A DNA stretch of 64,000 bases from Thermoanaerobaculia bacterium (GCA_035544675.1 DATKCA010000025.1:35776-99775), one strand, 5' to 3'. Positions 1 through 64,000 are shown, counted from the stretch's first letter. Numbers and translations: made by a program. Notes: generated from the letters alone by a model not told the origin.

Positions 1-1
1 C

Positions 2-601
2 GAAGTGACCGGCGGGAGCGTCACGTACGAGGGAAGAAATCTCCTGGAGATGGCGCCGGAAGCGCGAGCGCGCGAAGGCGTCTTCCTGGCCATGCAGTAT
101 CCGGTGGAGATCCCTGGCGTCAACAACACCTACTTCCTCAAGGCAGCGCTGAACGCGATGCGCAAGCACCGCGGCGAGGAGGAGCTGGACGCCATCGAGT
201 TCCTGCAGCTGGCGCGGCAGAAGATGAAGGTGGTCGGCTTCGACGAGTCGTTCATGAACCGCGGCGTCAACGAAGGGTTCTCCGGCGGCGAGAAGAAGCG
301 GAACGAGATCTTCCAGATGGCCGTGCTCGATCCGAAGCTGGCCATCCTCGACGAGACCGACTCCGGGCTGGACATCGACGCGCTGCGCATCGTCGCGGAG
401 GGCGTGAACACGCTGCGGAGCGAGAAACACGCGGTGCTGGTGATCACGCATTACCAGCGCCTGCTGCAGTATCTCGTTCCCGACTTCGTGCACGTTCTCT
501 CCAACGGGCGGATCGTCAAGTCAGGCGGGAAAGAGCTGGCCGAAGAGCTGGAGCAGAAGGGCTACGAGTGGCTCGAGACCGAGGTCGCGACGGCGCGATG
601 A
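2..601 (+). CDS. sufC: Fe-S cluster assembly ATPase SufC (5'-truncated at window edge)
   Basis: Translation carries the ABC signature (FSGGEKKRNEI), Walker B/D-loop (ILDETDSGLDID) and H-loop (ITHYQRLL) typical of SufC. It is followed by sufD and sufS. Confidence 0.93.
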   Translation, partial: EVTGGSVTYEGRNLLEMAPEARAREGVFLAMQYPVEIPGVNNTYFLKAALNAMRKHRGEEELDAIEFLQLARQKMKVVGFDESFMNRGVNEGFSGGEKKRNEIFQMAVLDPKLAILDETDSGLDIDALRIVAEGVNTLRSEKHAVLVITHYQRLLQYLVPDFVHVLSNGRIVKSGGKELAEELEQKGYEWLETEVATAR

Positions 602-1848
602 AGACCGCTGTGGAAACCGCAGTCCTGCAACGGCTCCGTCAAGCCGGCGCCGAGCGCTTCAAGGCGCTCGGATGGCCGACCACGCGCATCGAGGAATGGA
701 AGTACACAAGCCTGGCGGCGCTCGCGAAAATGCAGTGGAGCGCCGCCATTCCTGGCGGCGAGGCTCCCGTGCTCACCAACTCGATGGTGGGAGTGGCCGC
801 CGTGGAGATGCTTTTCGTGAACGGACACTTCCATTCGATGCAGGGTGAGCCGCCCCGCGGGATCTCCGTGAGCAATCTCGCCGCGGCCGCGGACAGCGAC
901 GTCGTCGAGCAGCACCTGGGCCGGTACGCGGACCTGGAGCGGTCGGCGATGACGGCGCTCAACGCCGCGAACATAGAGGACGGCGCGGTCATCGTGGCCG
1001 GAGAACGCGTTCCGTTCGAAGGGTTCATCCACCTGATCTTCGCCGGAAGCGGCGACGGAGTGTGGTCGCATCCGCGCAATCTCATCGTGGCCGGGCGGGG
1101 CAGCCAGCTCACGGTCGTGGAGAGCTTCGTCGGCACGGGCGCGTATTTCACGAACAGCGTGACGGAGATCGTGGCCGCGGACGGCGCCGTGGTCGATCAC
1201 TACAAGATCGGCTGCGAGTCGGCCACGGCGTATCACGTCGGGTCGGTTCACTATCACCAGGAGCGGGCCAGCAGCGTCACCTCGCGCAATGTCGTCGCCG
1301 GCGGAGCGCTGGTGCGCAACGACATCACCGGCATCCTGGCCGGGGAGGGCGCGTCGCTGACGCTGGAAGGCCTGTTCGTGATCACCGGCCAGCAGCACGC
1401 GGACAACCACACGCTGATCGATCACGTCAGCCCGCGCTGCGAGAGCCACGAGATCTACAAGGGCATCCTCGATGAGAGCGCGAGGGGCATCTTCGACGGG
1501 CGGATCATCGTCCGTCCCAACGCCCAGAAGACGGTCTCACGGCAGGAGAACAGGAACCTGCTGCTTTCAGAGAAGGCCGTCGTTGATTCCAAACCGACGC
1601 TGGAGATCCACAACGACGACGTCAAATGCAACCACGGCTCGACGATCGGGCAGCTCGACGAGGAGGCCATGTTCTACCTTCGCTCGCGCGGCATCGACGA
1701 GGAGGACGCGCGCACGCTGCTGGTGTTGGCGTTCGCGAGCGAGCTCGTCAACCGCATGAAGATCGAGCCGGTGCGCGAGCAGGTCCGCCGCGCCCTGTTC
1801 CGCCAGATGCCGGAGCGGCTTCCGGAGCAGAGAGAGAAGGGACGATGA
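598..1848 (+). CDS. sufD: Fe-S cluster assembly protein SufD
   Basis: About 416 aa with SufB/SufD-family C-terminal beta-helix. Start ATG (MKTAVE) overlaps the sufC stop, and its stop overlaps the sufS start (ATGA). Confidence 0.88.
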   Translation: MKTAVETAVLQRLRQAGAERFKALGWPTTRIEEWKYTSLAALAKMQWSAAIPGGEAPVLTNSMVGVAAVEMLFVNGHFHSMQGEPPRGISVSNLAAAADSDVVEQHLGRYADLERSAMTALNAANIEDGAVIVAGERVPFEGFIHLIFAGSGDGVWSHPRNLIVAGRGSQLTVVESFVGTGAYFTNSVTEIVAADGAVVDHYKIGCESATAYHVGSVHYHQERASSVTSRNVVAGGALVRNDITGILAGEGASLTLEGLFVITGQQHADNHTLIDHVSPRCESHEIYKGILDESARGIFDGRIIVRPNAQKTVSRQENRNLLLSEKAVVDSKPTLEIHNDDVKCNHGSTIGQLDEEAMFYLRSRGIDEEDARTLLVLAFASELVNRMKIEPVREQVRRALFRQMPERLPEQREKGR

Positions 1849-3104
1849 GCCCCGCACACTCCACACTGCCGAGCCTTCCTGCCGCGAAGTACGACGTGCA
1901 GGCGGTCCGGGCCGACTTCCCGATTCTCTCCACGACCGCGCACGGGCATCCCCTCGTCTATCTCGACAACGCGGCCACCACGCAGAAGCCGAAGGCGGTC
2001 ATCGACCGCATCGTCCGCTACTACTCGTCCGAGAACTCGAACGTGCATCGCGGCGTCCACTACCTCAGCGAGGCGGCCACGTCCGCGTACGAGGACGTGC
2101 GCAGCGTGGTCATGCGCTTCATCAACGCCCGCTCGGAGAAGGAGATCATCTTCACGCGGGGCACGACGGAGGGCATCAACCTGGTCGTGCAGACCTGGGG
2201 GCGGAAGAACATCGGCGCGGGCGACGAGGTGCTGATCTCGGCCATCGAGCATCACTCCAACATCGTCCCGTGGCAGATGCTGTGCGACGAGAAGGGCGCC
2301 AGGCTCAGCGTCATCCCGGTCAACGACAGCGGGGAGCTGTCGATGGACGACTACGCGCGTATGCTCAATCCGCGCGTGAAGGTGGTGGCCGTCGGCCACG
2401 CTTCGAATGCGCTCGGCACGATCAACCCGGTCCGTCAGATCACGACACTGGCCCATGCCAACGGCTCTCTGGTCCTGATCGATGGCGCGCAGGGCGTCCC
2501 GCACATGACGGTCGACGTGCAGGCCATCGACTGCGACTTCTACGCGTTCTCCGGACACAAGGTATACGGCCCGACCGGCGTGGGAGTGCTCTACGGGCGG
2601 CAGTCGCTGCTCGAGTCCATGCCTCCCTGGCAGGGCGGCGGCGACATGATCCTCTCCGTGTCGTTCGAGAAGACCACGTACAACGCTCTTCCTTACAAGT
2701 TCGAGGCGGGTACTCCCAACATCGAGGGTGTGGTCGGTCTGGGAGCGGCGCTCCAGTACGTTTCCGCTCTCGGCCTGGACAACATCTCCGCGTACGAGCA
2801 TGACCTTCTGCTCTACGCCACCAGGCGGCTGCAGGAGATCGACGGCCTCCGCATCATCGGCACGGCCCGGGAGAAGGCCGCCGTCATCTCGTTCGTGCTG
2901 GAGGGGGTGCATCCGCACGACATCGGGACGATCCTCGATCAGGAAGGCATCGCCGTCCGCACGGGACATCACTGCGCGCAGCCGCTGATGATGCGCTTCA
3001 ACGTTCCGGCCACCGGCCGGGCCTCGTTCGGCATTTACAATACGCGCGACGAAGCCGCCCGGCTCGTCGATGCGCTGCGTAAAGTCGTCGAGGTGTTTCG
3101 CTGA
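1845..3104 (+). CDS. sufS: cysteine desulfurase SufS (class V aminotransferase)
   Basis: Contains AATTQKP, the PLP-lysine region SGHKVYGPTGVGVLYG, and the active-site RTGHHCAQP. Start chosen at MSPAHS (ATG 1845) inside a longer ORF; ATGA overlap with sufD. Confidence 0.94.
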   Translation: MSPAHSTLPSLPAAKYDVQAVRADFPILSTTAHGHPLVYLDNAATTQKPKAVIDRIVRYYSSENSNVHRGVHYLSEAATSAYEDVRSVVMRFINARSEKEIIFTRGTTEGINLVVQTWGRKNIGAGDEVLISAIEHHSNIVPWQMLCDEKGARLSVIPVNDSGELSMDDYARMLNPRVKVVAVGHASNALGTINPVRQITTLAHANGSLVLIDGAQGVPHMTVDVQAIDCDFYAFSGHKVYGPTGVGVLYGRQSLLESMPPWQGGGDMILSVSFEKTTYNALPYKFEAGTPNIEGVVGLGAALQYVSALGLDNISAYEHDLLLYATRRLQEIDGLRIIGTAREKAAVISFVLEGVHPHDIGTILDQEGIAVRTGHHCAQPLMMRFNVPATGRASFGIYNTRDEAARLVDALRKVVEVFR

Positions 3105-3553
3105 TGTCCGATCTCCGGGAGCTGTATCAACAGGTCATTCTCGATCACAACAAGAACCCCCGTAACTTCCGTGAGCTGGAGGACGCGCGGCGCGTGGAGG
3201 GCTTCAATCCGCTGTGCGGCGACCACTACACGCTCTTTCTCCAGGTCGATGACCATGATGTGATCAGGGACGTGAGCTTCACCGGCAGCGGCTGCGCGAT
3301 CTCGAAAGCGTCCGCATCGGTGATGAGCTCGACCGTCAAGGGAAAATCGAAGGAGGAAGTGGGCCGCCTTTTCGAGACGTTTCACAGACTGGTGACGGGC
3401 GATACGAGCGGTGTCGATTCGACCGAGCTCGGCCGGCTGGCCGCGTTTTCCGGTGTGTCGGAGTTCCCGGCGCGCGTGAAGTGCGCGACGCTTGCATGGC
3501 ATACGCTGCGGACCGCGCTGGATGGGCACGCCGAGAGCGTCACGACGGAGTGA
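3104..3553 (+). CDS. sufU: SufU/IscU-like zinc-dependent sulfur-transfer scaffold
   Basis: NifU-like N-terminal domain with the three conserved Cys (PLCGD, GSGCAIS, CATLAW). Start overlaps the sufS stop. Confidence 0.88.
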   Translation: MSDLRELYQQVILDHNKNPRNFRELEDARRVEGFNPLCGDHYTLFLQVDDHDVIRDVSFTGSGCAISKASASVMSSTVKGKSKEEVGRLFETFHRLVTGDTSGVDSTELGRLAAFSGVSEFPARVKCATLAWHTLRTALDGHAESVTTE

Positions 3554-3587
3554 ATGGAGCGCCGCCGACCCGGCGGCATTGAACGAC

Positions 3588-4148
3588 ATGAACATGAGAG
3601 AAGAAGTCGTAACCAGTCGCAACTGTGAGGCGGTGATGATTCCCAGCGGGGAGCGAGTCCTCGTCCCCGTCGGCTCTCACGCCACGATCACACAGAGCCT
3701 CGGCGGCACCTATACGCTCATCACCGACCGCGGCCTGATGGTTCGCGTCTCGGGCCATGAAGTCGAGGCCATCGGCAAAGTGCCCCAGGAAGTGCCTCAG
3801 GCCGCCAGCGAGGGTCAGGACCTCACGCCGGAAAAACTGGAAGAGTTGGTGTGGGACCAGCTCAAGACCTGCTTCGACCCCGAGATCCCCGTGAACATCG
3901 TCGACCTCGGCCTCGTCTACCTCTGCGAGCTGCAGGAAGCGGAGGAAGGGCGCAAGGACGTGAAGATCAAGATGACTCTGACCGCGCCGGGCTGCGGTAT
4001 GGGCCCCGTGCTCGCTGGCGACGTGAAGAACAAGATCGAGGCGCTGCCCGGTGTGCGGAACGCCGAAGTGGACGTGGTTTTCGACCCGGTGTGGGATCGC
4101 AGCATGATGTCCGAGGCTGCGAAGCTGCAGCTCGGCATGATGTGGTAG
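3588..4148 (+). CDS. sufT: SufT-like Fe-S assembly protein (DUF59/MIP18 C-terminal domain, long form)
   Basis: C-terminus PVNIVDLGLVY...LTAPGCGMGP...DVVFDPVWD matches DUF59. It is the last gene of the suf operon. Start at MNMREE (about 3588) rather than the ORF track's upstream start. Confidence 0.72.
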   Translation: MNMREEVVTSRNCEAVMIPSGERVLVPVGSHATITQSLGGTYTLITDRGLMVRVSGHEVEAIGKVPQEVPQAASEGQDLTPEKLEELVWDQLKTCFDPEIPVNIVDLGLVYLCELQEAEEGRKDVKIKMTLTAPGCGMGPVLAGDVKNKIEALPGVRNAEVDVVFDPVWDRSMMSEAAKLQLGMMW

Positions 4149-4215: not shown

Positions 4216-4253
4216 GGACTACAATCACACAGTCCACACAAACCAGTCCGGAG

Positions 4254-4853
4254 GTGATGATGCCGTTCTGCGCGAATTGCGGCCAACAGGTGACCGCGGT
4301 CTCGTATGCTCCGTGTCCGCATTGCGGGCGCCCTTCGAATGGCGCGCCTCCCCGGGTTGCGGCCCCGCCCGTTCGCGCCACGACGAACACCGCGACGGTC
4401 CTCGTGGTGGTCCTCGTCGGTGGCCTGGTGGTCATCGCAATCCTGGGAATCCTCGCCGCGATCGCCATTCCGAATCTACTCACGGCCATGCAGCGCTCGA
4501 AGCAGAAGCGTTCGATGGCCGACATCCGTTCCGCGGCGACCGCTGTCGAAGCGTGGTCAACGGATACCGGGCACTATCCCGAAGCCTCGACGATGGATGA
4601 GCTCGAGCAACAGCTGTCGCCGAAGTACATCGCCGTGCTTCCGAAGGTCGACGGGTGGGGAAATCCGATCAAATACGCCTGCTGGTCCGTTGCGACCGCC
4701 CGGTGCGACTCGTATGCGTTCGGCTCGGCGGCGAGAGACGGCGTTTTCTCGCAGGATTCTCTGAAGGACTACGCTGGCGGGACCGGGACGACGAACTTCG
4801 ACGACGACATCATCTACTCGAACGGCGGATTCATCCAGTATCCCCAGAATTAG
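4254..4853 (+). CDS. zinc-ribbon / pilin-like bitopic membrane protein
   Basis: N-terminal CxxC...CxxC (CANCGQQ...CPHCG), then a Pro-rich linker, then a TM helix IAILGILAAIAIPNLLTAMQRSKQKR resembling the type IV pilin/GspG alpha1 helix. No prepilin G|FTLIE cleavage motif. RBS GGAGGTG upstream. Confidence 0.6.
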   Translation: MMMPFCANCGQQVTAVSYAPCPHCGRPSNGAPPRVAAPPVRATTNTATVLVVVLVGGLVVIAILGILAAIAIPNLLTAMQRSKQKRSMADIRSAATAVEAWSTDTGHYPEASTMDELEQQLSPKYIAVLPKVDGWGNPIKYACWSVATARCDSYAFGSAARDGVFSQDSLKDYAGGTGTTNFDDDIIYSNGGFIQYPQN

Positions 4854-4864
4854 AAAGGCGATCC

Positions 4865-5221
4865 ATGCACTGCACAAATTGTGGACAACAGATTCCGGAT
4901 ACCGGGTCGATCTGCCCGAATTGTGGCCGCAGCGTTCAGAAATTCTCGTCGCAGGCGGCGGCAACCCCGGCAGGAGCCGCTCCTGTGCAGAACTATCTCG
5001 TGCCGGCCATCCTGGTGACGTTCTGCTGTTGCATGCCGGCGGGAATCGTCGGAATCGTCTACGCCGCGCAGGTCAATGGAAAGCTGGCCGCCGGTGACAT
5101 GGCCGGAGCGCTGGACTACGCCAGGAAAGCGAAGATGTGGAGCTGGATCGGTGCCGGAGTGGGGCTGGTCTTCTCGGCGTTGTACCTCGCGCTCATGGGA
5201 CTCGGAATGATCGATGCCTAA
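4865..5221 (+). CDS. zinc-ribbon + CD225/dispanin-family membrane protein
   Basis: MHCTNCGQQI...CPNCG zinc ribbon paralogous to the preceding gene's N-terminus. The C-terminal part (LVTFCCCMPAGIVGIVYAAQVNGK...) resembles CD225/interferon-induced transmembrane family. Start taken at the internal ATG (MHCTNCG) of the longer ORF. Confidence 0.62.
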   Translation: MHCTNCGQQIPDTGSICPNCGRSVQKFSSQAAATPAGAAPVQNYLVPAILVTFCCCMPAGIVGIVYAAQVNGKLAAGDMAGALDYARKAKMWSWIGAGVGLVFSALYLALMGLGMIDA

Positions 5222-5564
5222 GGTCGCGCTTCTGGCGCTGGTGTCCGCCGCGGCGGCCGCCGTCGCCGTCGTCCTCTACCTGTTCGACCCGGCGGCGGTG
5301 GCCTTTTACCCGCGCTGCATGTTCCACGCTCTGACTGGACTGCAGTGTCCCGGGTGCGGGTTGACTCGCGCGGTGCATCAGGTGCTGCACGGAGACATCG
5401 CCGAGGCCATCCGCCTGAATGCGTTCGGGATCGTGTTTGCTCCGGTCGTTGTGGCGGGGGCGATCGCCGCGCCGCCGCGGGTGCTGCTGCGGCCGTGGAT
5501 CGGCTGGACCGCGGTGGCGCTGGTTCTGGGCTGGGGTGTGGCTCGGAACGTCTTCGAGCTGTAG
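5214..5564 (+). CDS. DUF2752-family membrane protein
   Basis: CMFHALTGLQCPGCGLTRA motif with flanking TM segments. Overlaps the preceding gene by 8 nt, so likely co-transcribed. Confidence 0.68.
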   Translation: MPKVALLALVSAAAAAVAVVLYLFDPAAVAFYPRCMFHALTGLQCPGCGLTRAVHQVLHGDIAEAIRLNAFGIVFAPVVVAGAIAAPPRVLLRPWIGWTAVALVLGWGVARNVFEL

Positions 5565-5602
5565 TGGAGCGCCGCGCCATCTCGCGCGGCGCTCCACAGT
5601 TT
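5565..5602. terminator. bidirectional terminator hairpin between convergent small-membrane-protein operons
   Basis: Perfect 14-bp stem gtggagcgccgcgc / gcgcggcgctccac with a 6-nt loop, followed by AGTTTGT. Sits exactly between the stops of the plus and minus gene sets. Confidence 0.6.
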
Positions 5603-5605
5603 GTC

Positions 5606-5938
5606 CTACACGCCTTTGTTGAACCAGGTCCACTGCCCGATGGACTTGCCCTGCTGAAGCAGCTGCGCCTGCATGTAGCCGTCGATCGCAGCAACGAGGG
5701 CGACGATCCCCGAGGGAATGCCGCACGCGATCAGTCCGAGAACCCATACGACGATGGCCACGATGCCCTTCGTCTTCTGGCCCATGATGATGTACCCGAC
5801 GCCGCCTGCCACCAGCAGGTTCAGCACGAGCACGAGGATCGGATCTTTCGGCGGCGTGCTGGGATGGATGATGTCGCCGCCGCCGGGGCCGCCGGCCGGA
5901 GGAGGATTGGACGAACCGCCGGGTGAAATATTGCTCAT
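5606..5938 (-). CDS. TM2-domain-like small membrane protein with Gly/Pro-rich N-terminus
   Basis: Two TM helices separated by the GQKTKG turn (VGYIIMGQKTKGIVAIVVW) resemble TM2-domain proteins. N-terminal PPPAGGPGGG tract. Confidence 0.5.
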   Translation of the reverse strand: MSNISPGGSSNPPPAGGPGGGDIIHPSTPPKDPILVLVLNLLVAGGVGYIIMGQKTKGIVAIVVWVLGLIACGIPSGIVALVAAIDGYMQAQLLQQGKSIGQWTWFNKGV

Positions 5939-5947
5939 GAACTCTCC

Positions 5948-6382
5948 TTAGAATTTGTCAGCGAAGTCGCTGATCATCGGAACGCGGAAGCGCTGGCCTG
6001 CGACTGCCTTGACGATGCAGATGATCCGGATCACGAGAAATCCGATCCAGACCACGCACTGGATCGTCGCAATTCCGCATCCAAGCCCCATGCCTTCCGG
6101 CATGAGGAACCCGAGGATGAAGAAGAGCATCCAGAGGGCGATCTCCGCGGCGAGGATGACCAGGCCGTTCTTGGCGTGCCACTGCACCTCGCGGTCGTCC
6201 TTCTTGGCGAGAAGCGGGATGAGCGCGAGAATCCACAGGTAGGCCAGGACGACCATCAGCGTGCGATCGCCCCCCGGAGCAGCGGCTCCGCCGCTGGGCG
6301 GTGGAGGAGGAGAATACGATCCGCCGCCGGGAGGAGGCGGGGTGGTCGGGGGGGTGGAGGGCGGCGGAGGGATCGAGCTCAT
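5948..6382 (-). CDS. DUF4870-like small membrane protein with poly-Pro N-terminus
   Basis: N-terminus PPPPSTPPTTPPPPGGG, then LAYLWILALIPLLAKKDDREVQWHAKNG and two further TM helices. Sits 9 nt upstream of the TM2-like gene on the same strand. Confidence 0.5.
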   Translation of the reverse strand: MSSIPPPPSTPPTTPPPPGGGSYSPPPPPSGGAAAPGGDRTLMVVLAYLWILALIPLLAKKDDREVQWHAKNGLVILAAEIALWMLFFILGFLMPEGMGLGCGIATIQCVVWIGFLVIRIICIVKAVAGQRFRVPMISDFADKF

Positions 6383-6427: not shown

Positions 6428-8080
6428 CTAGCCTCTTTGTCCCAGACGTGCGAGACGCTTTTCCGCGACGATCAGGGGCACGACAGCGAGCAGCGCTGAA
6501 ACGACGATCGCGGCGGCGATCGGAATCACCGACGACAGCCACGTTTGATCGTAGGCAATGCCGAGTACGCGCCACATGAAATAGCGCACGATCGGACGGG
6601 CCATGATCAGCATCATCCAGCCCACGTACAGCATCGAGATGGCCATATACGCGAAACCACCCAGCGACAGGCCGACCTGCAGCGGATTCTCGGCGTTGAA
6701 TTGCGGAGCGAACGCCCCCATCCCCACTCCCAGGCACACCAGCGTGATCGCCACGATGGCAGCGCCGGCCATCGTGAACCCCCACACCACGAGGCCTGCC
6801 CCGAGGATGACGTTCGCGAACCCCGTCAGGAGCATGGCCAGGAGCGTGAGCGGCAATCCGTAGACCAGGACTTTCACTCGCAGCAGATCGCGATACGAGA
6901 CGGGAGCCACCTGCACCATCCAGAACGCCTTCCCCTCCGCCGAGACCGAGGGGTAGGCGAAGCGGAGACAGATCGCGGCGACGACGAAGCCGGCCATGCC
7001 GAGGTTCGCGTAGGCGACGAGCGTGGCCCGCGCGTCGCCGCCCAGCGGCAGCATGCGGATGTTGTACAGGTAGATGAAGAGCAGCGCGGCCATCAGAAAG
7101 ACCTGCGACCACTGCGCGACATCGCGCGTGACGGTCCGGATCTCCTTGGCCATGAGCGCGCGCGGTACCGGCCGCGCTCGAGTCAGGAGGCGGTCGACCC
7201 ACCCGGTGACGGCCACCGATCCGAGAGCCACGGGGGCCATGCTCTCCCGGGCACGCACGAAGGCCTGGAAATAGACCGGCGTGGCCACGACCAGCAGCAT
7301 CGCGAACAGGGCGGGCGCCAGGAGCGCGATGCGCGCCGGCAGCATCGGACCGCCGTCGATCATCGTGTCCGCCAGCGCCGATCCCGGATAGATGCTCATT
7401 GCCGGCAGCTCCACCGCGCGAAGCACCGCCACCACGTCGTCCGTGGAGATCTCCGCGAACAACCGCTCGGGGCGGCTGGCGCGAAACGCGACCACGGCAA
7501 GACTGAGGACGATGACGGCGAGCAGAGCCACGATCTGGTGGACGCGCCGCACTGGAAACCATCGAACGAGCAGCACGATGACGATGCACGCCAGCGAGAC
7601 GGGGATGGTCAGCAGAAGCGCGAGATTGCCGAGGATGCGCGGGTAGAACGTCCAGGGATGGCCGTACTGGCGCGCGAACGCGACGAAGAGCGGAACGAGG
7701 AACACGAAGACGACGGTCGCGCTCTGCAGCAGCGTCTTGGCCCACCGCCCTGCCACGATGGCGAGCTTGGAGCGCGGGGCGGCGTGATACGTGTCGAGAT
7801 CGAGGTCGGTGAAGAATGCGCCGATCGATGCGGTCAGCGCCGACGAGAAGAGGACGACCGTGGCCACGAGGAAGACCAGAGAGAGGAGATTGCGCAGCAG
7901 GCCGAGCGCGAAGAATGGCGTGGCCGTCTCGATGTCCGCCGTGGCGCGGAACAACCTCTGGAACAGCGCGTAGTCACCCAGGATGAACAGCGCGAAGACA
8001 CTGGCGACGATGGCGATGCGCGCGAAGGCGCTCCCGTTGAGCGGACGGAGTTTCGACAGCGCGATGCGCAGGGACCACAT
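6428..8080 (-). CDS. polytopic integral membrane protein (about 12 TM; possible ABC-exporter-like permease, no ATPase partner here)
   Basis: 550 aa and almost entirely hydrophobic helices. No recognisable catalytic motif. Confidence 0.55.
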   Translation of the reverse strand: MWSLRIALSKLRPLNGSAFARIAIVASVFALFILGDYALFQRLFRATADIETATPFFALGLLRNLLSLVFLVATVVLFSSALTASIGAFFTDLDLDTYHAAPRSKLAIVAGRWAKTLLQSATVVFVFLVPLFVAFARQYGHPWTFYPRILGNLALLLTIPVSLACIVIVLLVRWFPVRRVHQIVALLAVIVLSLAVVAFRASRPERLFAEISTDDVVAVLRAVELPAMSIYPGSALADTMIDGGPMLPARIALLAPALFAMLLVVATPVYFQAFVRARESMAPVALGSVAVTGWVDRLLTRARPVPRALMAKEIRTVTRDVAQWSQVFLMAALLFIYLYNIRMLPLGGDARATLVAYANLGMAGFVVAAICLRFAYPSVSAEGKAFWMVQVAPVSYRDLLRVKVLVYGLPLTLLAMLLTGFANVILGAGLVVWGFTMAGAAIVAITLVCLGVGMGAFAPQFNAENPLQVGLSLGGFAYMAISMLYVGWMMLIMARPIVRYFMWRVLGIAYDQTWLSSVIPIAAAIVVSALLAVVPLIVAEKRLARLGQRG

Positions 8081-8095
8081 TCTTAGGCCTAAGGC

Positions 8096-9172
8096 CTAAA
8101 CAATGCGCCTGGCTTCGCGCAGCCACGCCATCGCGCTCTGGTGCCTCTCCTCGCGCGCCTTGTGGCGCTCGAGCCCCAGCTCCACGAGGCGCTCGATCAG
8201 CCTCGAGTACTTCAGCTCTGCCGCCTCCCACAGCTTGGGATACATCGAGATGTTCGTGAATCCCGGGATGGTGTTGATCTCGTTGACATAGAGACGGTTG
8301 GTGCCGCGCTCGAGGAAGAAGTCGACGCGAGCGTAGCCGGCGGCGCCGACGGCCTTGAACGCCGCGATGGCGAGGCGGCGAACTTCCTCACTCTTCTCCT
8401 TCGGGAGCCGGGCCGGGATGATGAGCGAGGCTTTGTCGTCGGCGTATTTGTCCGCGTAGTCGTAGAAGTCTCCGCCGGGCACGATCTCGCCCGGCACCGA
8501 AGCCTCGACCGTGGTGTTGCCGAGCACTGAGATCTCGAGCTCGCGGGCGTCGACGCCGCGCTCGACGAGGACCTTGTCGTCGAAGCGGAACGCGAAGTCC
8601 ATGGCCTTGCCCAGCTCCGCGTCGCTCTTCACCTTCACGACTCCGATCGACGAGCCGCTGTTGGCCGGCTTGACGAAATACGGGAGCCTGAGGGCGTTGT
8701 CGACGGCGCGGGAGATCCGCTCTTTCTCGGTCCGCCAGTCGCTCTCCAGCACGGCCACGTGCTCGACCGTCGGCAGCTTGGCAGCGCTGAAGGCGTGCTT
8801 CATGTGGCCTTTGTCCATGGCCACCGCGGAGGCGGCCACGCCGCTGCCGGCGTACGGCGCGCCCAGCGTCTCGAGGTAACCCTGGAGCGTGCCGTCCTCG
8901 CCGCCGGTGCCGTGAATGAGCGGAAACACGACGTCGGCGTTGCCGGCGCGCCACCAGCTCTCGAATGAGAAGTCCGCAGGAGCGCCTTCGACAGGCAAGC
9001 CGCGCAGGACTGCCGCGCTCCGCTCCGGATCGAGGAACGCGCCGTCTTTGCTCATGAAGACGGGGATGATCTGCAGCCGCGACGGCGCGGCCGCGCTCAC
9101 CGAGCGCGCCGACAGGATCGACACATCGTGCTCGGCGGACTTCCCGCCGAAGATCAGCGCGACGCGTGTCAT
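8096..9172 (-). CDS. ddl: D-alanine--D-alanine ligase
   Basis: MTRVALIFGGKSAEHDVS...ATP-grasp...EINTIPGFT. Start ATG at about 9172 chosen inside the 463-aa ORF. 4-nt overlap with the upstream MCE gene's stop. Confidence 0.93.
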   Translation of the reverse strand: MTRVALIFGGKSAEHDVSILSARSVSAAAPSRLQIIPVFMSKDGAFLDPERSAAVLRGLPVEGAPADFSFESWWRAGNADVVFPLIHGTGGEDGTLQGYLETLGAPYAGSGVAASAVAMDKGHMKHAFSAAKLPTVEHVAVLESDWRTEKERISRAVDNALRLPYFVKPANSGSSIGVVKVKSDAELGKAMDFAFRFDDKVLVERGVDARELEISVLGNTTVEASVPGEIVPGGDFYDYADKYADDKASLIIPARLPKEKSEEVRRLAIAAFKAVGAAGYARVDFFLERGTNRLYVNEINTIPGFTNISMYPKLWEAAELKYSRLIERLVELGLERHKAREERHQSAMAWLREARRIV

Positions 9173-10707
9173 CGTCCCAGCGGGATGCTGCCGAGCAGGT
9201 ATTTCAAGTCGTCGTCGCGCCAGCGGATGCCGCCGCCGAAGGTAATGGCCGTGTCGTTGAGGGCGTTGTCCACTCCGGATGTGAAGAAGACCCGGGGCAG
9301 CTTCTCGCTCTCGCGCCGGAATGTGTACTCGCCGAAGACGCGGATGTGGGGGTTGTCGTCTCGTTTCTGGCCGAAGTCGAATACCTCGCCGGACACGCGG
9401 AGCCGATCGCTCAGGGAGTAGTCGGCGCCGACGCCGCCCGCGGAGTCGAAGAGGCCGATGCGCAGGGCCAGGTCGTCGAGGACCCATCCCACCTGCGCGG
9501 AGACGAGGAAGTCGCGGTCGAACTTCGTGGTGCGAGTCGTGATGGTGCGCGTGCCGCCGGTGAGCGAGTCGGTGATGTTCTCGACCGTGACCTTGTCGCG
9601 GCGCTTGCCACGCGGATCGTCGCTCAGCTCGACGTTGTAGAAGCGGTTCTTCTCCGGGTTGGGCACGAGGCGGAGGCCCACCGCAGTGCGCGAGTTCCCT
9701 CCGAAGTCCCCGGCCTCATCGCCGTCTTCGTCCGCGTCGTTGCTGCGTCCCGCGTAGTAGTCCGCCTTGATCCCGATATCGAGACCGATCTGATTGGCGC
9801 GACCCAGCGTCGTGCGCAGCTCGTTCACTCCGCTCTCGACCGATCCGAGTGCGGTGGTCAGCCGCTGGTGGGCCTCCTCGCTGTAGAGCAGCTTTCCGAC
9901 CGTGCCTTCACCGCTCTTCACCTGTCCGGTGATGGCGTTGAGGTTCTCGGTGGTCACCCGCAGGTCCGCCGACAGGGTTCGGAGGTTGTCGACGAGGCGG
10001 CGGACGTCTTCGCGATTCTCTCCCACCGTCCCGCCGACGGAGCCGGCGGCGCGGTCCAGCGATGCCGCGAGCTTCGGAATCTCCACGCGAAGGCTGGCGG
10101 TGATGTCCCGCACGTTGGCCATCGTCGCGTCGACGTTGTTGCGGTTCGCGGCCACGAGCTGGCGCATCTGAGCCGTGATGTCGCGGACGTTCTCGACGAT
10201 GTCTTCCAGGCTCTGCTGGCCCTGCGGGCTGGCCATGACCGTCTTCAGCGACTCGGTGATCGCCTTGATGTCATTGGCGATCTCGGACACCTGTGTGGTC
10301 ACGTCATCGATGCTGGCCGGCTGGCTTCCGGGAAGGCGGATGGACTCGCCGGTCACCACGCCTGCGCCGGGGGTGCCGGGGTCGAGCTCCACGTATTTCT
10401 CGCCGAGGAGCCCGAGGTTCGCGACGCGTGCAGTGGCGTTGCGGTGGATCTGGACGTCATCGTCGACGTCCAGCGTCACCACGGCCTTCCCGCTCTCCAC
10501 GCGCACGTCGGACACTTTGCCCTTCCGCACGCCGGCCACGCGTACGGCCGATTTCACGTCGAGACCAGCCACGTCATCGAATGCCACCGTGACCTTGCGT
10601 GTGCCCTTGCCCCGCCCGACGTCGATGTCTTCGATCTTCAGAACGAAGTAACCCACTATCGCCAGGATGACGAGCATGAGAACGCCGAGTTTCGCTGCGG
10701 ATGACAT
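9169..10707 (-). CDS. MCE/MlaD-family protein with long C-terminal extension
   Basis: N-terminal TM plus MCE domain (VTVAFDDVAGLDVKSAVRVAGVRKGKV), a coiled-coil middle, and a roughly 230-aa C-terminal region with beta-strand-like periodicity (RVFGEYTF, ITFGGGIRW). Confidence 0.78.
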   Translation of the reverse strand: MSSAAKLGVLMLVILAIVGYFVLKIEDIDVGRGKGTRKVTVAFDDVAGLDVKSAVRVAGVRKGKVSDVRVESGKAVVTLDVDDDVQIHRNATARVANLGLLGEKYVELDPGTPGAGVVTGESIRLPGSQPASIDDVTTQVSEIANDIKAITESLKTVMASPQGQQSLEDIVENVRDITAQMRQLVAANRNNVDATMANVRDITASLRVEIPKLAASLDRAAGSVGGTVGENREDVRRLVDNLRTLSADLRVTTENLNAITGQVKSGEGTVGKLLYSEEAHQRLTTALGSVESGVNELRTTLGRANQIGLDIGIKADYYAGRSNDADEDGDEAGDFGGNSRTAVGLRLVPNPEKNRFYNVELSDDPRGKRRDKVTVENITDSLTGGTRTITTRTTKFDRDFLVSAQVGWVLDDLALRIGLFDSAGGVGADYSLSDRLRVSGEVFDFGQKRDDNPHIRVFGEYTFRRESEKLPRVFFTSGVDNALNDTAITFGGGIRWRDDDLKYLLGSIPLGR

Positions 10708-58873: not shown

Positions 58874-60214
58874 ATGTCAGATCAAACGGCGAATGCCGTT
58901 TTTGATAGCCGTCTCATTGTCCGGGCAGCGCTCCGCACCGACGTGGGAAAAGTGCGCTCGGAAAACCAGGATTTCGGCACGCTGACCAGCGAGCAGGAAG
59001 AGCGCAACAGTCAGCCCGGTGGAAGGCTGCTCGTCGTCGCGGACGGCATGGGTGGGCATCGCGGCGGAGCCACGGCCTCGCGCCTGGCCGGAGAGACGGT
59101 CAAGGCGAAGTACCTGGGAAGCAGCACGAGGGACATCCCTTCCGCGCTCCGCGATGCGCTCTCGGTCGCGAACCGGCGCATCTTTTCCGAGGCCCAGGCC
59201 AATCCTGATCTGCGTGGGATGGGAACGACGACCTCCGCATTGGCCGTGCGCCAGAATCAAGGCTGGTTCGCGCACGTCGGCGACTCGCGGATCTACATGA
59301 TCCGCGGCGAGGAGATCCGGCAGCTCACCGACGATCACTCGCTCGTCGCAACGATGATGCGCGAAGGGCTCCTCACCGCCAAGGAGGCCGAGAACCATCC
59401 GCGACGCAATGTCCTGCAGCGTTCCATCGGAGTCGGCGAAGAGGTCGAGATCGACATCAAGGGCCCGATCGACCTGCACGAGGGCGACATGTTCATCCTC
59501 TGCAGCGACGGCCTTCATGGCCTGGTGAAAGAGGATGAGCTGAAGGAAGTGGTGCAGATGGGCGTCGACGAGGCGGCGGATGAGTTCGTCAAGCGCGCGC
59601 TCGAGCGCGGCGCGCCGGACAACGTCACCGTCATCGTCGCGCGTGTCGAGCGCGCCACTGCTGACGACGATACCATCGCCGCAGCCACGCTGGACGGGAG
59701 GACGCTCGATCAGGCCGCGTTCGACGAGACGATTTCCGACGACACGGTGCGTGAAGTCCCGACGCCGACGTTGCCGGGCCAGATCCCGCTGGCCGCAACG
59801 GCCGAGGTGGCACTCCCTTCTGCCGGGGCGCTGCCGATCACGGCCGAAGTGCCCCTGCCGTCCGCGCCGGCGAAGGACGAGAGCAACGTCTCGACGGAAA
59901 AGATCGTCGCGTTGAAGGAAAACACGGACAAGATCCCGGCCCTGGCCGTGACAGCCGAAGTGCCTCTGAAGCCGGAAACACCTTCGCGCGCGGGAGCGAA
60001 GGCCGACGTCGACGCGACGATTCGCGTTGCTCCGGTCACGATGCCGGCGACGCCGCCGAAGCGACCGGTGGGGAAGCCGGTGCGCAAGTCCGGACGCAAT
60101 CTCGTGAAGTGGACGCTGATCTTTGTTGTCGTGCTCGCCGCGGCGGGCGCCTGGCTGTTCTGGAGCCAGCAGCAGGGGTTCGCCGATTCGTCATCGACCT
60201 CTCAGCGGCGGTAA
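58874..60214 (+). CDS. PP2C-family Ser/Thr phosphatase with repeat-containing linker and C-terminal TM anchor
   Basis: VADGMGGH, HVGDSRIYM, DGLHG and APDNVTVIV PP2C motifs. The tail has AEVPL repeats and one TM. Confidence 0.9.
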   Translation: MSDQTANAVFDSRLIVRAALRTDVGKVRSENQDFGTLTSEQEERNSQPGGRLLVVADGMGGHRGGATASRLAGETVKAKYLGSSTRDIPSALRDALSVANRRIFSEAQANPDLRGMGTTTSALAVRQNQGWFAHVGDSRIYMIRGEEIRQLTDDHSLVATMMREGLLTAKEAENHPRRNVLQRSIGVGEEVEIDIKGPIDLHEGDMFILCSDGLHGLVKEDELKEVVQMGVDEAADEFVKRALERGAPDNVTVIVARVERATADDDTIAAATLDGRTLDQAAFDETISDDTVREVPTPTLPGQIPLAATAEVALPSAGALPITAEVPLPSAPAKDESNVSTEKIVALKENTDKIPALAVTAEVPLKPETPSRAGAKADVDATIRVAPVTMPATPPKRPVGKPVRKSGRNLVKWTLIFVVVLAAAGAWLFWSQQQGFADSSSTSQRR

Positions 60215-60218
60215 CCCT

Positions 60219-61859
60219 ATGTTGACCCGTTCCCTCGGTGCAATGGGTCTGATCGCCGTGGCCGTCGGCGTGAGTGGCTGCCGCAGGGATGAAGTGCGGC
60301 TCGACGAGGTTCAGAAGATGGCTTATAGCGTCAAGCCTGCCGTTGTGCGCGTGAACGCGTTCGCGACGGCCGAGTTCCGCTATTCGGGCCGGGCCATCTT
60401 CGAAGTCGCCGCGCAACTCACGCGCGACGGCCGTGATGTCGATCCGCGCAGCATCCCCGATCAGGAGGTCGGCGTGGAGACCGGCGCGGGCGGATCGGGC
60501 AGCGGCTTCGTGGTCAATCCGAACGGGTACATCCTCACGAACCTCCACGTGGTGGCGCCTACGCGCGACGCCGCCTCGCTCGAGCGTGACCTGCGCAGGA
60601 ACGGGGCGATCTCCGCGCTGGTCCGGCATTTTCCGATCGACCAGCTGCGCGCGCTTTATCGCGACGACGTCCTGGACCGTTACATCGACGTCGTGGCCAG
60701 GGCGGGACGCCTCGCCAAGACCAAAACGGTCAACGAGGTCGAGCTGTCGAACGGCGAGAAGCTGCCTTTCACGATCCAGCGGTTCTCCCCCGCGCTCACC
60801 GAGCGCGGGAACGACCTGGCCCTCCTGAAGATCAACCGGAAGAACCTTCCGGTGCTGCGCCTCGGCGACTCCGAGGCGGTTGGCGTCGGGGAATCGATCT
60901 GGTCCGTCGGCTATCCGGCCGTGGCCAGCAGCACCGACGACATCATCGGCGGCTGGCTCTCCCGGGAGAGCGACCTCGAAGCGACGTTCAACCCGGGGAC
61001 GATCACTGCGATCAAGAGCAATGTCGCGAATGCGCCGGTATTTCAATCGAACGTCGCGATCTATCGAGGCAACTCCGGCGGACCGGCCGTGAACCGCAAC
61101 GGCGAGGTGATCGGTGTCTCCACATGGGGCCACACGAGCGCCGAGCAGATCAAATTCCTCGTTCCGGTCAATGCGGCGCGGTCGCTCGTCACGTCCGCCG
61201 GTGTGCAGCCGAACGTGGAGAGCGACTTCGATCGCTACTACCGCGCGGCGCTCGACGCAGCCGCGGAAGGGCGGTGGGCGGGGGCGCGAAAGAACCTGGC
61301 CACGGCATCGCAGCTCTTCCCGAACTCGCCGGACCTCATTCGATTCCGCCGCGACACCGACCGCGCCATCACCCGTGTGCCGGGCTGGCAGCAGTATCCG
61401 CTCGCGGTGGCGGTTCTGGGCGGTGGAGCCGTGGCGATCGCGTTTGTCGGGGTTGTGGCCATCGTGGCCGGGAACCGCCGGCACAAAGCCCCTCGAGAGG
61501 TGCTGAACAGCCAGGCGGTGGAGTCTGTGGTGGCGCCGGCGGGAACCTCGCCCAACAGGATGCTCGGGCGTTTCACCATCCTCAACGGCCTTCGCGCTGG
61601 CGAGAAGCTGGGACTGGGCGGGTCAGGCATCCGGATCGGGCGTGAGTCGGCCATCTGCGAGATCGTGCTGGAGAATCCAAAGGTGTCACGGCTTCATGCC
61701 GAAGTGGTATTGCTCGACGGCAAGGTGATGCTGATCGACAGGAATTCCTCAAACGGTACATACGTAAACGATCAAAAGATCGATCGGCGATATCTCAGAG
61801 ACGGCGACATCATTCACTTCGGTGGGCGCAATGCCGTGGCGGTGGCGTTTCATGTTTAG
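60219..61859 (+). CDS. trypsin-like serine protease (S1C) - TM - FHA domain fusion lipoprotein
   Basis: Lipobox VGVSGC. Catalytic triad: His in TNLHVV, Asp in NDLALLK, Ser in GNSGGP. Then a TM and a C-terminal FHA (RIGRESAICEIVLENPKVSRLHAEV...SSNGTYVND). Confidence 0.8.
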   Translation: MLTRSLGAMGLIAVAVGVSGCRRDEVRLDEVQKMAYSVKPAVVRVNAFATAEFRYSGRAIFEVAAQLTRDGRDVDPRSIPDQEVGVETGAGGSGSGFVVNPNGYILTNLHVVAPTRDAASLERDLRRNGAISALVRHFPIDQLRALYRDDVLDRYIDVVARAGRLAKTKTVNEVELSNGEKLPFTIQRFSPALTERGNDLALLKINRKNLPVLRLGDSEAVGVGESIWSVGYPAVASSTDDIIGGWLSRESDLEATFNPGTITAIKSNVANAPVFQSNVAIYRGNSGGPAVNRNGEVIGVSTWGHTSAEQIKFLVPVNAARSLVTSAGVQPNVESDFDRYYRAALDAAAEGRWAGARKNLATASQLFPNSPDLIRFRRDTDRAITRVPGWQQYPLAVAVLGGGAVAIAFVGVVAIVAGNRRHKAPREVLNSQAVESVVAPAGTSPNRMLGRFTILNGLRAGEKLGLGGSGIRIGRESAICEIVLENPKVSRLHAEVVLLDGKVMLIDRNSSNGTYVNDQKIDRRYLRDGDIIHFGGRNAVAVAFHV

Positions 61860-61885
61860 GATGGGTATGGGCAGGAGAGGACGTC

Positions 61886-62596
61886 GTGGCTGATAAACGG
61901 TGCGCCAACGGGCACTTCATCGACGAGTCATGGGATCTGTGTCCCTATTGCCCGGTCGAGAACGTCGAGCCGGACATCCCCATCGTGCGCCCGACCAGGG
62001 CCGTACCGCAGCCCGAGCCGGCGCGCGCCGTCGCGGTGCCGCCAGCCCCGCCCATCCGGCGCGAAGTTCCGCAGCCGCTCCCGGCGGTGGTGCCGGCGGC
62101 CATCCCGCCACCCACCGCCCCCGTGAGCGCGCAGCCTGCGGCGACGGCGGCCGCTCCACCGGTCGCTCCGGTGGCCGACCGTCCCTCCACCCCTCCCATG
62201 GAGAGGACCATCGCCGTTCCGAAGATGGAGACCGGAGCGGCTGCCAAGCGATACGTTGTCGGCTGGCTGGTGGGGCTGAACGGGGCGTTGCGGGGTGAGT
62301 CGTACGCGGTCCGGATCGGGCGCAACGTTCTTGGCCGGGACAAGAAGTCGGACATCGTCGTCAACGACGATCAGGCCTCGGCGCATCACGCCGATCTGGT
62401 GTTCCGGCCGGAGGAGCGCCGCTTCATCCTGATGGACCACAACTCCACCAACGGCACTTACGTGAACGAGAGCGAGATCGAGCCGCGGCGCGATCTGGCC
62501 GGCAAGGACGTCATTCGCATCGGGTCGCACAGGTTCCTCTTCATGCCGCTGTGTCATGACGGCTTCTACTGGGATGATGAGGGCGCGTTGAAATGA
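61886..62596 (+). CDS. zinc-ribbon - Pro-rich linker - FHA domain protein
   Basis: N-terminal C..H....CPYCP ribbon, about 90-aa Pro/Ala linker, then FHA (RIGRNVLGRDKKSDIVVNDDQASAHHADL...STNGTYVNE). Confidence 0.75.
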   Translation: MADKRCANGHFIDESWDLCPYCPVENVEPDIPIVRPTRAVPQPEPARAVAVPPAPPIRREVPQPLPAVVPAAIPPPTAPVSAQPAATAAAPPVAPVADRPSTPPMERTIAVPKMETGAAAKRYVVGWLVGLNGALRGESYAVRIGRNVLGRDKKSDIVVNDDQASAHHADLVFRPEERRFILMDHNSTNGTYVNESEIEPRRDLAGKDVIRIGSHRFLFMPLCHDGFYWDDEGALK

Positions 62597-63843
62597 TCGG
62601 TAACGTCATCGGCAACTACCGGATCGAGCGCGAGCTCGGCGAAGGAGGGATGAGCCACGTGTACGTGGGTCGCACTCTGGCCGCGAACGAGACCCTGCCC
62701 ACGGACTTCCAGGTCGTGCTGAAAATCATGTCCGAAGAGCTGGCCGGCGAGCTGACGGCGCGCAAGCGCTTCGTGAAAGAGGCGCAGATCCTGTCCAAGC
62801 TGCGTCATCGCTACATCACGCGTTTCTACGAGTTCATCAACAACGACAGCGGAGCGACGCTGGTCATGGAGTTCGTCGACGGCATGCCTGTCGACATGCT
62901 GATCGCCGAGAAGGGCGCGCTGCCGCTTCGCGACGCCATCACCATCACACAATGCATGCTGGAGGCGCTCGTCTACGCTCACGGCAAGGGGATCGTGCAC
63001 CGCGACATCAAGCCGGCCAACCTGATCCGCGAGAAGGGCGGGACGGTGAAGGTCACCGACTTCGGCATCGCCAAGATCAAGGAAGGCGCCGGCGTGACCG
63101 GCCAGACCGTGCTCACCAAGTCCGGATTCCTCCTGGGCACACCGCACTACATGTCGCCGGAGCAGATCCGCGAGCCGAAAGACGCCGGCGCGAAGTGCGA
63201 CATCTACTCCGCGGGAGTCGTTCTGTACGAGATGCTCACGGGGACGCTGCCGTTCAACAGCCGGTCGCTTCCGAAGCTCATTGACGCGATCTATCGCGGT
63301 GACAAACCGGTGCCTTCGTCGCTGCGCCCCGAGATCGACAAGGCACTCGAGGCGATCGTGCTCAAGTCGATGCACCCCCGTCACGATCAGCGCTACGAGA
63401 CCGCGCGCGAGTTCTACGAGGAGCTGGAGGAGTACACGGCCCGCCAGCCCATCGCCGGCGGCCTCGGTCCGACCGCACCCGCCTCCTCCCCGGTGTTCGG
63501 CTCGTCGCCGAACCTCGCGGCGCCCCAGGCGTCTCAGGCGGCCCCGCAGCAGTGGGCCCTGGTCAACGTCAAGCCCGAAGGAAACGAGAAATACCCGATT
63601 CAGGGCGAGAACATCATGGTCGGGCGCGATCGCACCTGCGCCATCGTCCTCACCCATCCGGCCGTTTCGCGGCGGCACGCGCGCATTACCCTCACCGGCG
63701 CCTCGCCCGTCCTGGAAGACCTGAAGTCGGCCAACGGTACGTACGTCAACAACACCCGGGTCGACCGTGTGAAGCTCAAGGCCGGCGACGTCGTCCGTTT
63801 CGGCGCTGACCCGTCATGCAGTTACGTTTTGAGGGATCACTGA
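62593..63843 (+). CDS. Hanks-type Ser/Thr protein kinase with C-terminal FHA domain
   Basis: GEGGMSHVY, VLK, HRDIKPANL, DFG and SPE kinase subdomains. C-terminal FHA (MVGRDRTCAIVLTHPAVSRRHARI...SANGTYVNN). Confidence 0.94.
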   Translation: MIGNVIGNYRIERELGEGGMSHVYVGRTLAANETLPTDFQVVLKIMSEELAGELTARKRFVKEAQILSKLRHRYITRFYEFINNDSGATLVMEFVDGMPVDMLIAEKGALPLRDAITITQCMLEALVYAHGKGIVHRDIKPANLIREKGGTVKVTDFGIAKIKEGAGVTGQTVLTKSGFLLGTPHYMSPEQIREPKDAGAKCDIYSAGVVLYEMLTGTLPFNSRSLPKLIDAIYRGDKPVPSSLRPEIDKALEAIVLKSMHPRHDQRYETAREFYEELEEYTARQPIAGGLGPTAPASSPVFGSSPNLAAPQASQAAPQQWALVNVKPEGNEKYPIQGENIMVGRDRTCAIVLTHPAVSRRHARITLTGASPVLEDLKSANGTYVNNTRVDRVKLKAGDVVRFGADPSCSYVLRDH

Positions 63844-63865
63844 TGAATGCCCCCCAGGAGTCGTC

Positions 63866-64000
63866 ATGAGCCAGATCAATTGCCTTCGCTGTAAAGAGCC
63901 GATCGACGAGCAGCTGGAGCAGTGCCCGGCGTGCGGCGAGAAGGTGACCAGTTTCCAGAGGACGTATGCGACGCGTCTAATCGATGGCAAGTACCAGATC
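63866..64000 (+). CDS. zinc-ribbon protein (3'-truncated at window edge)
   Basis: MSQINCLRCKEPIDEQLEQCPACGEK. RBS CAGGAG upstream. Confidence 0.45.
   Translation, partial: MSQINCLRCKEPIDEQLEQCPACGEKVTSFQRTYATRLIDGKYQI

Follow-up and report, generated by a model that had tools for sequence, protein, structure and literature searches.

Two converging predicted transcription units of small membrane proteins in a Thermoanaerobaculia genome, one of them containing a recurrent CD225-DUF2752 gene pair

Five small open reading frames (ORF1 to ORF5) encoding membrane proteins lie on two converging strands between positions 4254 and 6382 of a 64,000-nucleotide (nt) stretch of a Thermoanaerobaculia bacterium metagenome-assembled genome (GCA_035544675.1 DATKCA010000025.1:35776-99775), referred to here as the window (Table 1). 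An earlier description of the same DNA, made without database searches (the sequence-only reading), had presented these genes as one convergent cluster. All five ORFs were found at the coordinates given there, and its domain assignments hold, with direct Pfam matches for ORF1, ORF2, ORF3 and ORF5 and a TM2 assignment at the superfamily level for ORF4. Hydropathy analysis finds 1, 2, 3, 2 and 3-4 hydrophobic segments in ORF1 to ORF5, respectively, in agreement with the proposal that all are small bitopic or polytopic proteins. The further proposal that each begins with a zinc ribbon or a Pro/Gly-rich tract does not extend to ORF3, which starts as a membrane helix, with a C-x9-CPGCG knuckle after it. 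The zinc ribbons of ORF1 and ORF2, described as paralogous, are homologous by profile comparison (hhalign, 96.7%), but their cysteine pattern is that of a generic Zn_ribbon. ORF1 and ORF2 are separated by 11 nt, and ORF2 overlaps ORF3 by 8 nt (ATGCCTAA); on the minus strand the ABC_tran_2 gene is followed after 45 nt by ORF5 and, after a further 9 nt, by ORF4. No non-coding RNA was recognised anywhere in the window by Rfam at gathering thresholds.

Table 1 Features of the window and selected features of related loci
Feature	Positions	Strand	Description
suf iron-sulfur (Fe-S) operon	1-4148	+	sufC, sufD, sufS, nifU/sufU, FeS_assembly_P; ends 111 nt before ORF1
Unit A	4220-5564	+	-10-like box and ORF1 to ORF3
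TACAAT -10-like box for unit A	4220-4225	+	34 nt 5' of ATG 4260
Shine-Dalgarno GGAGG of ORF1	4249-4253	+	
ORF1	4254/4260-4853	+	CxxC...CxxC zinc ribbon, one long membrane helix, GspG-like pseudopilin head
ORF2	4865-5221	+	Zinc ribbon and CD225/dispanin
ORF3	5214-5564	+	DUF2752, three-helix membrane protein
Hairpin	5564-5597	.	14-bp perfect GC-rich stem between converging stop codons
Unit B	8080-5606	-	ABC_tran_2 -> DUF4870/HOTT -> TM2-like
ORF4	5606-5938	-	Pro/Gly-rich tail and two-helix hairpin, divergent TM2 relative
ORF5	5948-6382	-	Poly-Pro tail and DUF4870/HOTT membrane domain (MamF/Tic20-related)
ABC_tran_2 protein	6428-8080	-	Polytopic, 550 aa; PF16949 E 3.8e-67; first gene of unit B
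Genes upstream of ORF5	6428-10707	-	ABC_tran_2, D-Ala-D-Ala ligase and MlaD/MCE protein in a row
Separate signalling cluster	60123-64000		
578-aa ORF	60123-61859		Apparent FHA-like C-terminus, read by eye
Zinc ribbon and FHA protein	61886-62596		
Ser/Thr kinase and FHA protein	62593-63843		
Zinc-ribbon start	63866		Runs off the window end
Second CD225 paralogue, L002	6932-7348		
Second CD225 paralogue, L005	6940-7389		
Second CD225 paralogue, L013	5110-5559		
Second CD225 paralogue, L018	5571-5999		
Solo DUF2752 gene, L170-L172	3001-3438 (each)		

The two strands converge on the hairpin GTGGAGCGCCGCGC-catctc-GCGCGGCGCTCCAC, whose 14 perfect pairs (12 G-C) and 6-nt loop confirm the perfect 14-bp hairpin reported earlier. 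Its free energy is -36.7 kcal/mol (z -6.3 compared with shuffles), and the converging stop codons stand 41 nt apart. Hairpins of at least -15 kcal/mol strength, with unrelated sequences, occupy the same convergent junction in 26 of 29 distinct relatives. The element is predicted to be bidirectional and terminator-like, insulating ORF1 to ORF3 (unit A) from ORF4, ORF5 and the ABC_tran_2 gene (unit B). At the other end of unit A, a TA[N]AAT motif no more than 70 nt from the start codon is shared by 19 of the 25 distinct sequences taken upstream of ORF1 homologues, which come from differing genomic contexts, compared with 0.6 expected from shuffles. A consensus scan gave no full sigma-70 -35/-10 pair, and only the -10-like TACAAT is conserved. 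In five loci (L003, L014, L100, L102 and L157) TACAAT lies only 6-13 nt before the ATG, a spacing that suggests leaderless mRNAs for these ORF1 homologues, whereas in the window it lies 34 nt upstream and is accompanied by a Shine-Dalgarno sequence.

Gene neighbourhoods were compared in two scans, one anchored on DUF2752 in 80 species genomes collected with the pattern TG[LV][QAW]CPGCG, and one anchored on a set of closer ORF4 homologues in 80 metagenomic loci, with the loci of both scored using hidden Markov models (HMMs) made from the domains of the window proteins. All five genes are found together, in unchanged order, in related Thermoanaerobaculia and are thus not confined to this genome; three relatives of ~55% ORF1 identity (L002, L003 and L005) have all five. 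As these three also keep the suf operon upstream and ABC_tran_2-Ddl-MlaD downstream, this is block synteny and proves little. The order of the ORF1-3 trio is kept in 11/11 Thermoanaerobaculia-type loci (L008-L018), which are also the only loci of the 80 DUF2752-anchored genomes with a full-length member of the ORF1 family. ORF4 and ORF5 lie near the trio in six of these 11 loci and are absent within 6 kb in the other five. Among testable ORF4-anchored loci, the ORF4 homologue is immediately preceded by DUF4870 in 63/63, and DUF4870 in turn by an ABC_tran_2 homologue in 27/27, while the DUF2752 trio faces unit B in only 14/39. The trio also stands alone elsewhere, lying in L088/L089 between ABC exporters and ThiS/sortilin genes, with suf and ORF4/5 absent. 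These counts contradict the single five-gene system of the sequence-only reading, whose suggestion of a membrane-organising or stress-sensing role is speculative. The 14/39 frequency, the trio's own -10 box and the separating hairpin together indicate, on sequence grounds, two independent transcription units that abut in part of the lineage.

In the window, as in many relatives, the genes sufBCDS-nifU-FeS_assembly_P precede the trio in the same orientation, and all three trio proteins are cysteine-rich, so that unit A could be viewed as an accessory of the suf Fe-S operon, for example a set of Cys-rich membrane clients or metal handlers co-transcribed with it. We regard this as most unlikely, since a conserved -10 box belongs to the trio itself, which is found without suf in L088/L089, suf converges directly on the DUF4870/TM2-like pair with no trio present in L117, L151, L153 and L168, and the CD225-DUF2752 pair has no suf neighbour in other phyla.

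This pair forms the widespread part of unit A. A CD225 gene lies immediately upstream of DUF2752 on the same strand in 39 of the 80 DUF2752-anchored loci, and downstream only in a single locus. In the other 40 loci, Pfam analysis of flanking same-strand ORFs gave 28 GYF_2, 18 DUF4190 and 4 TM2 matches. A CC(C) motif like that of CD225 is present in proteins of the DUF4190 type, and iterated HMM searches no longer keep the two families apart, which fits a homologous relationship; a gene of either type occurs within 700 bp of DUF2752 on the same strand in 53/80 loci. Among the loci that are not of the Thermoanaerobaculia type (L019-L087), 12 have a canonical TM2 gene adjoining DUF2752. Operons resolved by Pfam include DUF2752 -> GYF_2-TM2 -> GYF_2-DUF4190 (L021), CD225 -> DUF2752 -> GYF_2-TM2 (L049), CD225 -> zinc ribbon-TM2 -> DUF2752 (L084) and zinc ribbon-TM2 -> DUF2752 (L041). 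The DUF2752 loci belong to Acidobacteriota (three classes), Verrucomicrobiota and Bacteroidota, with single loci labelled Saccharimonadales and Staphylococcus. The CD225 and DUF2752 genes overlap by 26-44 nt in relatives, as predicted by gene callers, compared with 8 nt in the window. The two genes of the pair are translationally coupled and found together in no fewer than three phyla, and the DUF2752-centred module that links three of the five families (DUF2752, CD225/DUF4190 and TM2) is real and apparently undescribed. The N-terminal heads of the partners vary by lineage, being either zinc ribbon or GYF_2, and are of one kind in 24/24 operons with at least two headed partners; Bacteroidota has both kinds (zinc ribbon in L044, GYF_2 in L085). 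The gene order in L085 is GYF_2-CD225 -> DUF2752 -> GYF_2-CD225.

Under plain synteny, the locus would hold five unrelated housekeeping membrane proteins kept together by descent in one class, with no module. The equal conservation of the suf and ABC_tran_2-Ddl-MlaD flanks in L002, L003 and L005 is in keeping with this, as are the separation of units A and B in most relatives and the existence of solo DUF2752 genes. However, the trio relocates intact, CD225/DUF4190 adjoins DUF2752 with overlapping reading frames across species of mainly three phyla, where chance same-strand adjacency within 700 bp would be far below 1%, and DUF4870 and the TM2-like gene are adjacent in every testable locus. 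We therefore consider synteny as the whole explanation unlikely, although it is the most credible of the rival explanations.

ORF3 matches DUF2752 (PF10825) with 74.1 bits (cut-off 27, E 9e-21). Residues C35, C45, P46, C48, G49, N69 and R111 are invariant in the family alignment, and the knuckle extends to the motif C-x9-CPGCG-x-(T/S)R. The structural model is confident (pLDDT, the predicted local distance difference test, of 91); no solved structural or sequence relative of DUF2752 was found, and a literature search returned no paper that mentions the family. Long DUF2752 ORFs in six-frame calls (L040, L078, L020 and others) were rejected as overlapping-frame artefacts of GC-rich DNA. A solo DUF2752 subfamily (L170-L172) follows miaA-hfq-tmk-holB and converges on ispG-rseP-dxr, with no CD225, DUF4190 or TM2 neighbours; in L172 an unannotated 132-aa ORF lies just 5' of the gene.

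ORF2 covers the whole CD225 model (PF04505) over residues 40-107 (85.7 bits, cut-off 27.1, E 2e-24) and also matches Zn_Ribbon_1 (26.6 bits, cut-off 25). Its first helix contains FCCCMP (residues 53-58), and the two cysteines of the CC pair show 100% and 97% conservation across 58 homologues adjacent to DUF2752. The di-/tri-cysteine motif of this helix is S-palmitoylated in IFITM3, while in bacterial dispanins, whose role is itself unexplained, its conservation is without explanation and no palmitoylation of the motif is known (PMC3282796). Several relatives have a second CD225 paralogue, a zinc ribbon followed by a PPPPPPP linker, between the first CD225 gene and DUF2752, unlike the window, which has a single CD225 gene.

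The CD225 assignment raises the possibility of an IFITM-like anti-phage barrier, in which CD225 and its partners would stiffen or remodel the inner membrane and so prevent superinfection or the entry of phage genomes. Viral fusion is blocked by eukaryotic CD225 proteins, mycobacterial homologues are partly active in human cells (PMC4488726) and TIR fusions occur among ORF4-family homologues. Yet no PADLOC-DB family matched any of ORF1-5 or ABC_tran_2 (E up to 0.01), and PHROGs yielded only weak pilin and zinc-ribbon matches. The genes occupy conserved core-genome contexts (suf, ddl, mlaD) rather than variable defence islands, with no mobile-element signals near them in the window, and we judge a defence role distinctly improbable.

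ORF1 matches T2SSG (PF08334) over residues 74-163 (24.9 bits, cut-off 21, E 2.2e-5), with weak zinc-ribbon matches, and falls below the cut-off of the NCBIfam equivalog TIGR01710 for GspG (47 bits vs 88.85). Its relatives number thousands, and the best 120, all of ~200 aa, align over their full length; 119 of these have the N-terminal CxxC...CxxC zinc ribbon, the four cysteines of which are invariant among homologues. The real start of ORF1 is probably ATG 4260, because homologues begin MP[FY]CA.CG and a GGAGG sequence precedes this codon. The deposited annotation, named 'type II secretion system protein GspG', has an internal start (MVLVGGLVV..., 148 aa), which by comparison with homologues is too far downstream and removes the conserved four-cysteine zinc ribbon. 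The truncated product gives the appearance of a short prepilin leader.

In the AlphaFold2 model of ORF1 (pLDDT 90) the zinc-ribbon region forms short strands, residues 44-103 a 60-residue helix and the head a beta-sheet, with four strands listed besides the helix. The best Foldseek matches of the model in the PDB are EpsG/GspG structures (3gn9, 4lw9 and 3fu1; probability 1.0, target TM-score ~0.6, E-value only about 2e-3), while PDB sequence matches are restricted to the helix. This fold, the T2SSG match and the public name would suit a true (pseudo)pilin of a type II secretion system or type IV pilus, processed by cleavage and assembled into polymers, with its neighbours as accessory secretion factors. 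However, the prepilin-peptidase motif G[FMILVYA][STA][LMIV][LIVPTM]E, with G(-1) and E(+5), occurs in 0/120 homologues, the window protein having Val at -1 and Gly at +5, and almost all have the zinc ribbon before the helix. Furthermore, the TIGR01710 score is far below its cut-off, the public start codon removes a conserved domain, and no GspD/E/F or PilB/C/D gene is listed within 6-7 kb of ORF1 homologues in L002, L003, L005 and L088/L089. A cleaved pilin is consequently very improbable, and the missing cleavage motif argues that ORF1 is an uncleaved, membrane-anchored pseudopilin, as judged from its sequence. The zinc ribbon should be cytoplasmic and the GspG-like head periplasmic, with the protein remaining anchored in the membrane. 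No paper joining a pseudopilin with a zinc ribbon was found in a literature search.

Unit B is a strictly conserved triple of ABC_tran_2, DUF4870/HOTT and TM2-like genes. ORF5 matches DUF4870 (PF09685) with 38.2 bits (cut-off 25, E 1.5e-9; model positions 18-106 of 107). Its hydropathy segments were placed at 39-61, 72-102 and 97-130, with a charged KKDDRE sequence after the first. DUF4870 is the HOTT family, a relative of Tic20 and MamF proposed to help membrane-protein insertion or targeting, with a re-entrant helix, a charged loop that is conserved, and two more helices (PMC11628618). Such a targeting role would fit the fixed place of DUF4870 behind ABC_tran_2, and unit B is probably a separate unit for membrane-protein handling or export. 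No ABC ATPase gene adjoins the ABC_tran_2 membrane protein.

ORF4 itself has no Pfam match, TM2 (PF05154) being absent even at E up to 1. An exhaustive search gave an ORF4 family of 373 cluster representatives, and 13 of 72 scanned homologues match TM2 (E < 0.01) while 3/72 match DUF6677. Comparison by hhalign of the ORF4 family with the TM2 genes adjoining DUF2752 in other phyla gave 88.5% probability (E 2.7e-6, 47 columns), and a TM2 HMM from other phyla matches the ORF4 orthologues in L005 and L018. Taken together, the homologue matches, the profile comparison and the cross-phylum HMM support the label 'TM2-like' as right at the superfamily level. K57 and D86 are invariant. N-termini of the 72 scanned homologues include zinc ribbons (~20), GYF_2 (10), TIR, and DnaJ/Hsp70 or kinase domains. 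The fusion of the hairpin to TIR_2, DnaJ, Hsp70 and protein kinase in a few homologues suggests that the hairpin serves generally for membrane anchoring or oligomerisation. TM2 is described as being of unknown function in the SHOCT paper.

Two zinc ribbons far downstream, at 61886 and 63866, had been listed as recurrences of the same theme. Both exist but are located in an FHA/Ser-Thr-kinase cluster, a separate signalling cluster at the end of the window, and membership of the system described here was rejected.

We propose that the region consists of two insulated units, of which unit A, with its own -10 box and the overlapping CD225 -> DUF2752 pair as its core, would be the local form of a widespread operon combining DUF2752 with one to three small hairpin proteins (CD225, DUF4190 or TM2). 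In a hetero-oligomeric inner-membrane complex, DUF2752 may act as the shared central subunit, its three helices, juxtamembrane Cys3 knuckle and nearby conserved His providing a dock for the hairpin proteins. Contact could be made between the knuckle and membrane cysteines of the partners, namely CC(C) in CD225/DUF4190 and TCG in TM2, while matching heads might bind one another or a shared cytoplasmic ligand. By analogy to eukaryotic CD225 proteins (IFITM, PRRT2), such a complex would organise or alter the membrane and have no part in secretion, and ORF1 would contribute its GspG-like head as an addition on the periplasmic side, particular to Thermoanaerobaculia. We give this explanation as a whole about an even chance of being correct.

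Several observations weigh against it. The invariance of the cysteines in the 80-locus set is partly circular, as the loci were found by TG[LV][QAW]CPGCG. The topology of DUF2752 is ambiguous, with a lysine/arginine bias that weakly puts the Cys loop outside the cytoplasm and a CPxCG knuckle that suggests a cytoplasmic zinc site. Rosetta-stone fusions of DUF2752 number 0 among the best 120 profile matches, which are all stand-alone and 116-166 aa long. Common ancestry inflates the number of operons with matching heads, which reduces to roughly four independent lineages. No partner could be recognised in 24 to 27 of the 80 DUF2752 loci, with one subfamily standing alone behind miaA-hfq-tmk-holB, and the pairing is therefore frequent rather than obligate. 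The separation into units is affected too, as their adjacency in about a third of relatives and the TM2-DUF2752 operons elsewhere leave some room for a functional tie between A and B.

A bolder version, which we hold to be quite unlikely, is that DUF2752 is the missing bacterial factor acting on the universally conserved di-cysteine motif of CD225 and DUF4190 and on the TM2 membrane cysteine. It would be either a thiol enzyme, that is a small integral-membrane protein using its CPGC motif for S-acylation or for disulfide/thiol exchange, or one half of a Cys-metal clasp shared with its partners. If this were true, the CD225-DUF2752 operon would represent the ancestral context of animal IFITM/PRRT proteins and a tractable bacterial model for the existence of the CC motif. 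Eukaryotic CD225/IFITM proteins are thought to be bacterial in origin (PMC3282796).

CD225/IFITM proteins carry medical weight as antiviral restriction factors, and PRRT2 is tied to neurological disease. A DUF2752 partner with invariant cysteines offers a testable handle on the bacterial dispanins. The families themselves are already catalogued; what is new here is the CD225-DUF2752 pairing, the head matching, whereby the small membrane proteins of an operon exchange zinc ribbon for GYF_2, or the reverse, as a set, and the architecture of a pseudopilin with a zinc ribbon. The latter corrects public annotation, as 'GspG' at this locus denotes an uncleavable, zinc-ribbon-anchored pseudopilin with a misplaced start. 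In addition, an uncharacterised HOTT/Tic20-like protein is tied to a fixed ABC_tran_2 / TM2-like triple. The finding would be ordinary if the modules were mere neighbours.

Compared with known systems, ORF2 resembles the CD225/dispanin proteins (IFITM1-3, PRRT2 and the mycobacterial homologues) in its two hydrophobic helices and its basic loop NGKLAAGDMAGALDYARKAK, in which the G-D and A-x6-A motifs can be read from the sequence. It differs in beginning with a zinc ribbon, where the eukaryotic N-termini are Pro-rich or endocytic, and in being encoded as an overlapping pair with DUF2752. ORF1 shares with GspG/EpsG the alpha1 helix motif GILAAIAIPN, the core motif DGWG(N/H)P and the helix-plus-sheet fold, but has no class III signal peptide, carries a conserved cytoplasmic zinc ribbon before the helix and has no secretion or assembly genes listed nearby; it should remain anchored in the membrane as a monomer or oligomer, with no filament polymerisation. 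ORF4 is like TM2 (PF05154; eukaryotic TM2D1-3) in its two-helix hairpin with a first helix of the G-x-G-x(3)-G-Q-x(2)-K-G type, a Cys-Gly that is conserved behind helix 2 and, in the next segment, an acidic residue, while the C-terminal motif IDGYLQAQQLQ-G-x-P-x-G-Q-W-T-F-F sets it apart as a family of its own. ORF5 belongs with HOTT/DUF4870 proteins (MamF, MmsF and, distantly, Tic20) by its PF09685 match and its three to four hydrophobic segments, but it has a long poly-Pro/Gly N-terminal tail and, with magnetosome genes not present nearby, is locked instead to an ABC_tran_2 gene and a TM2-like gene.

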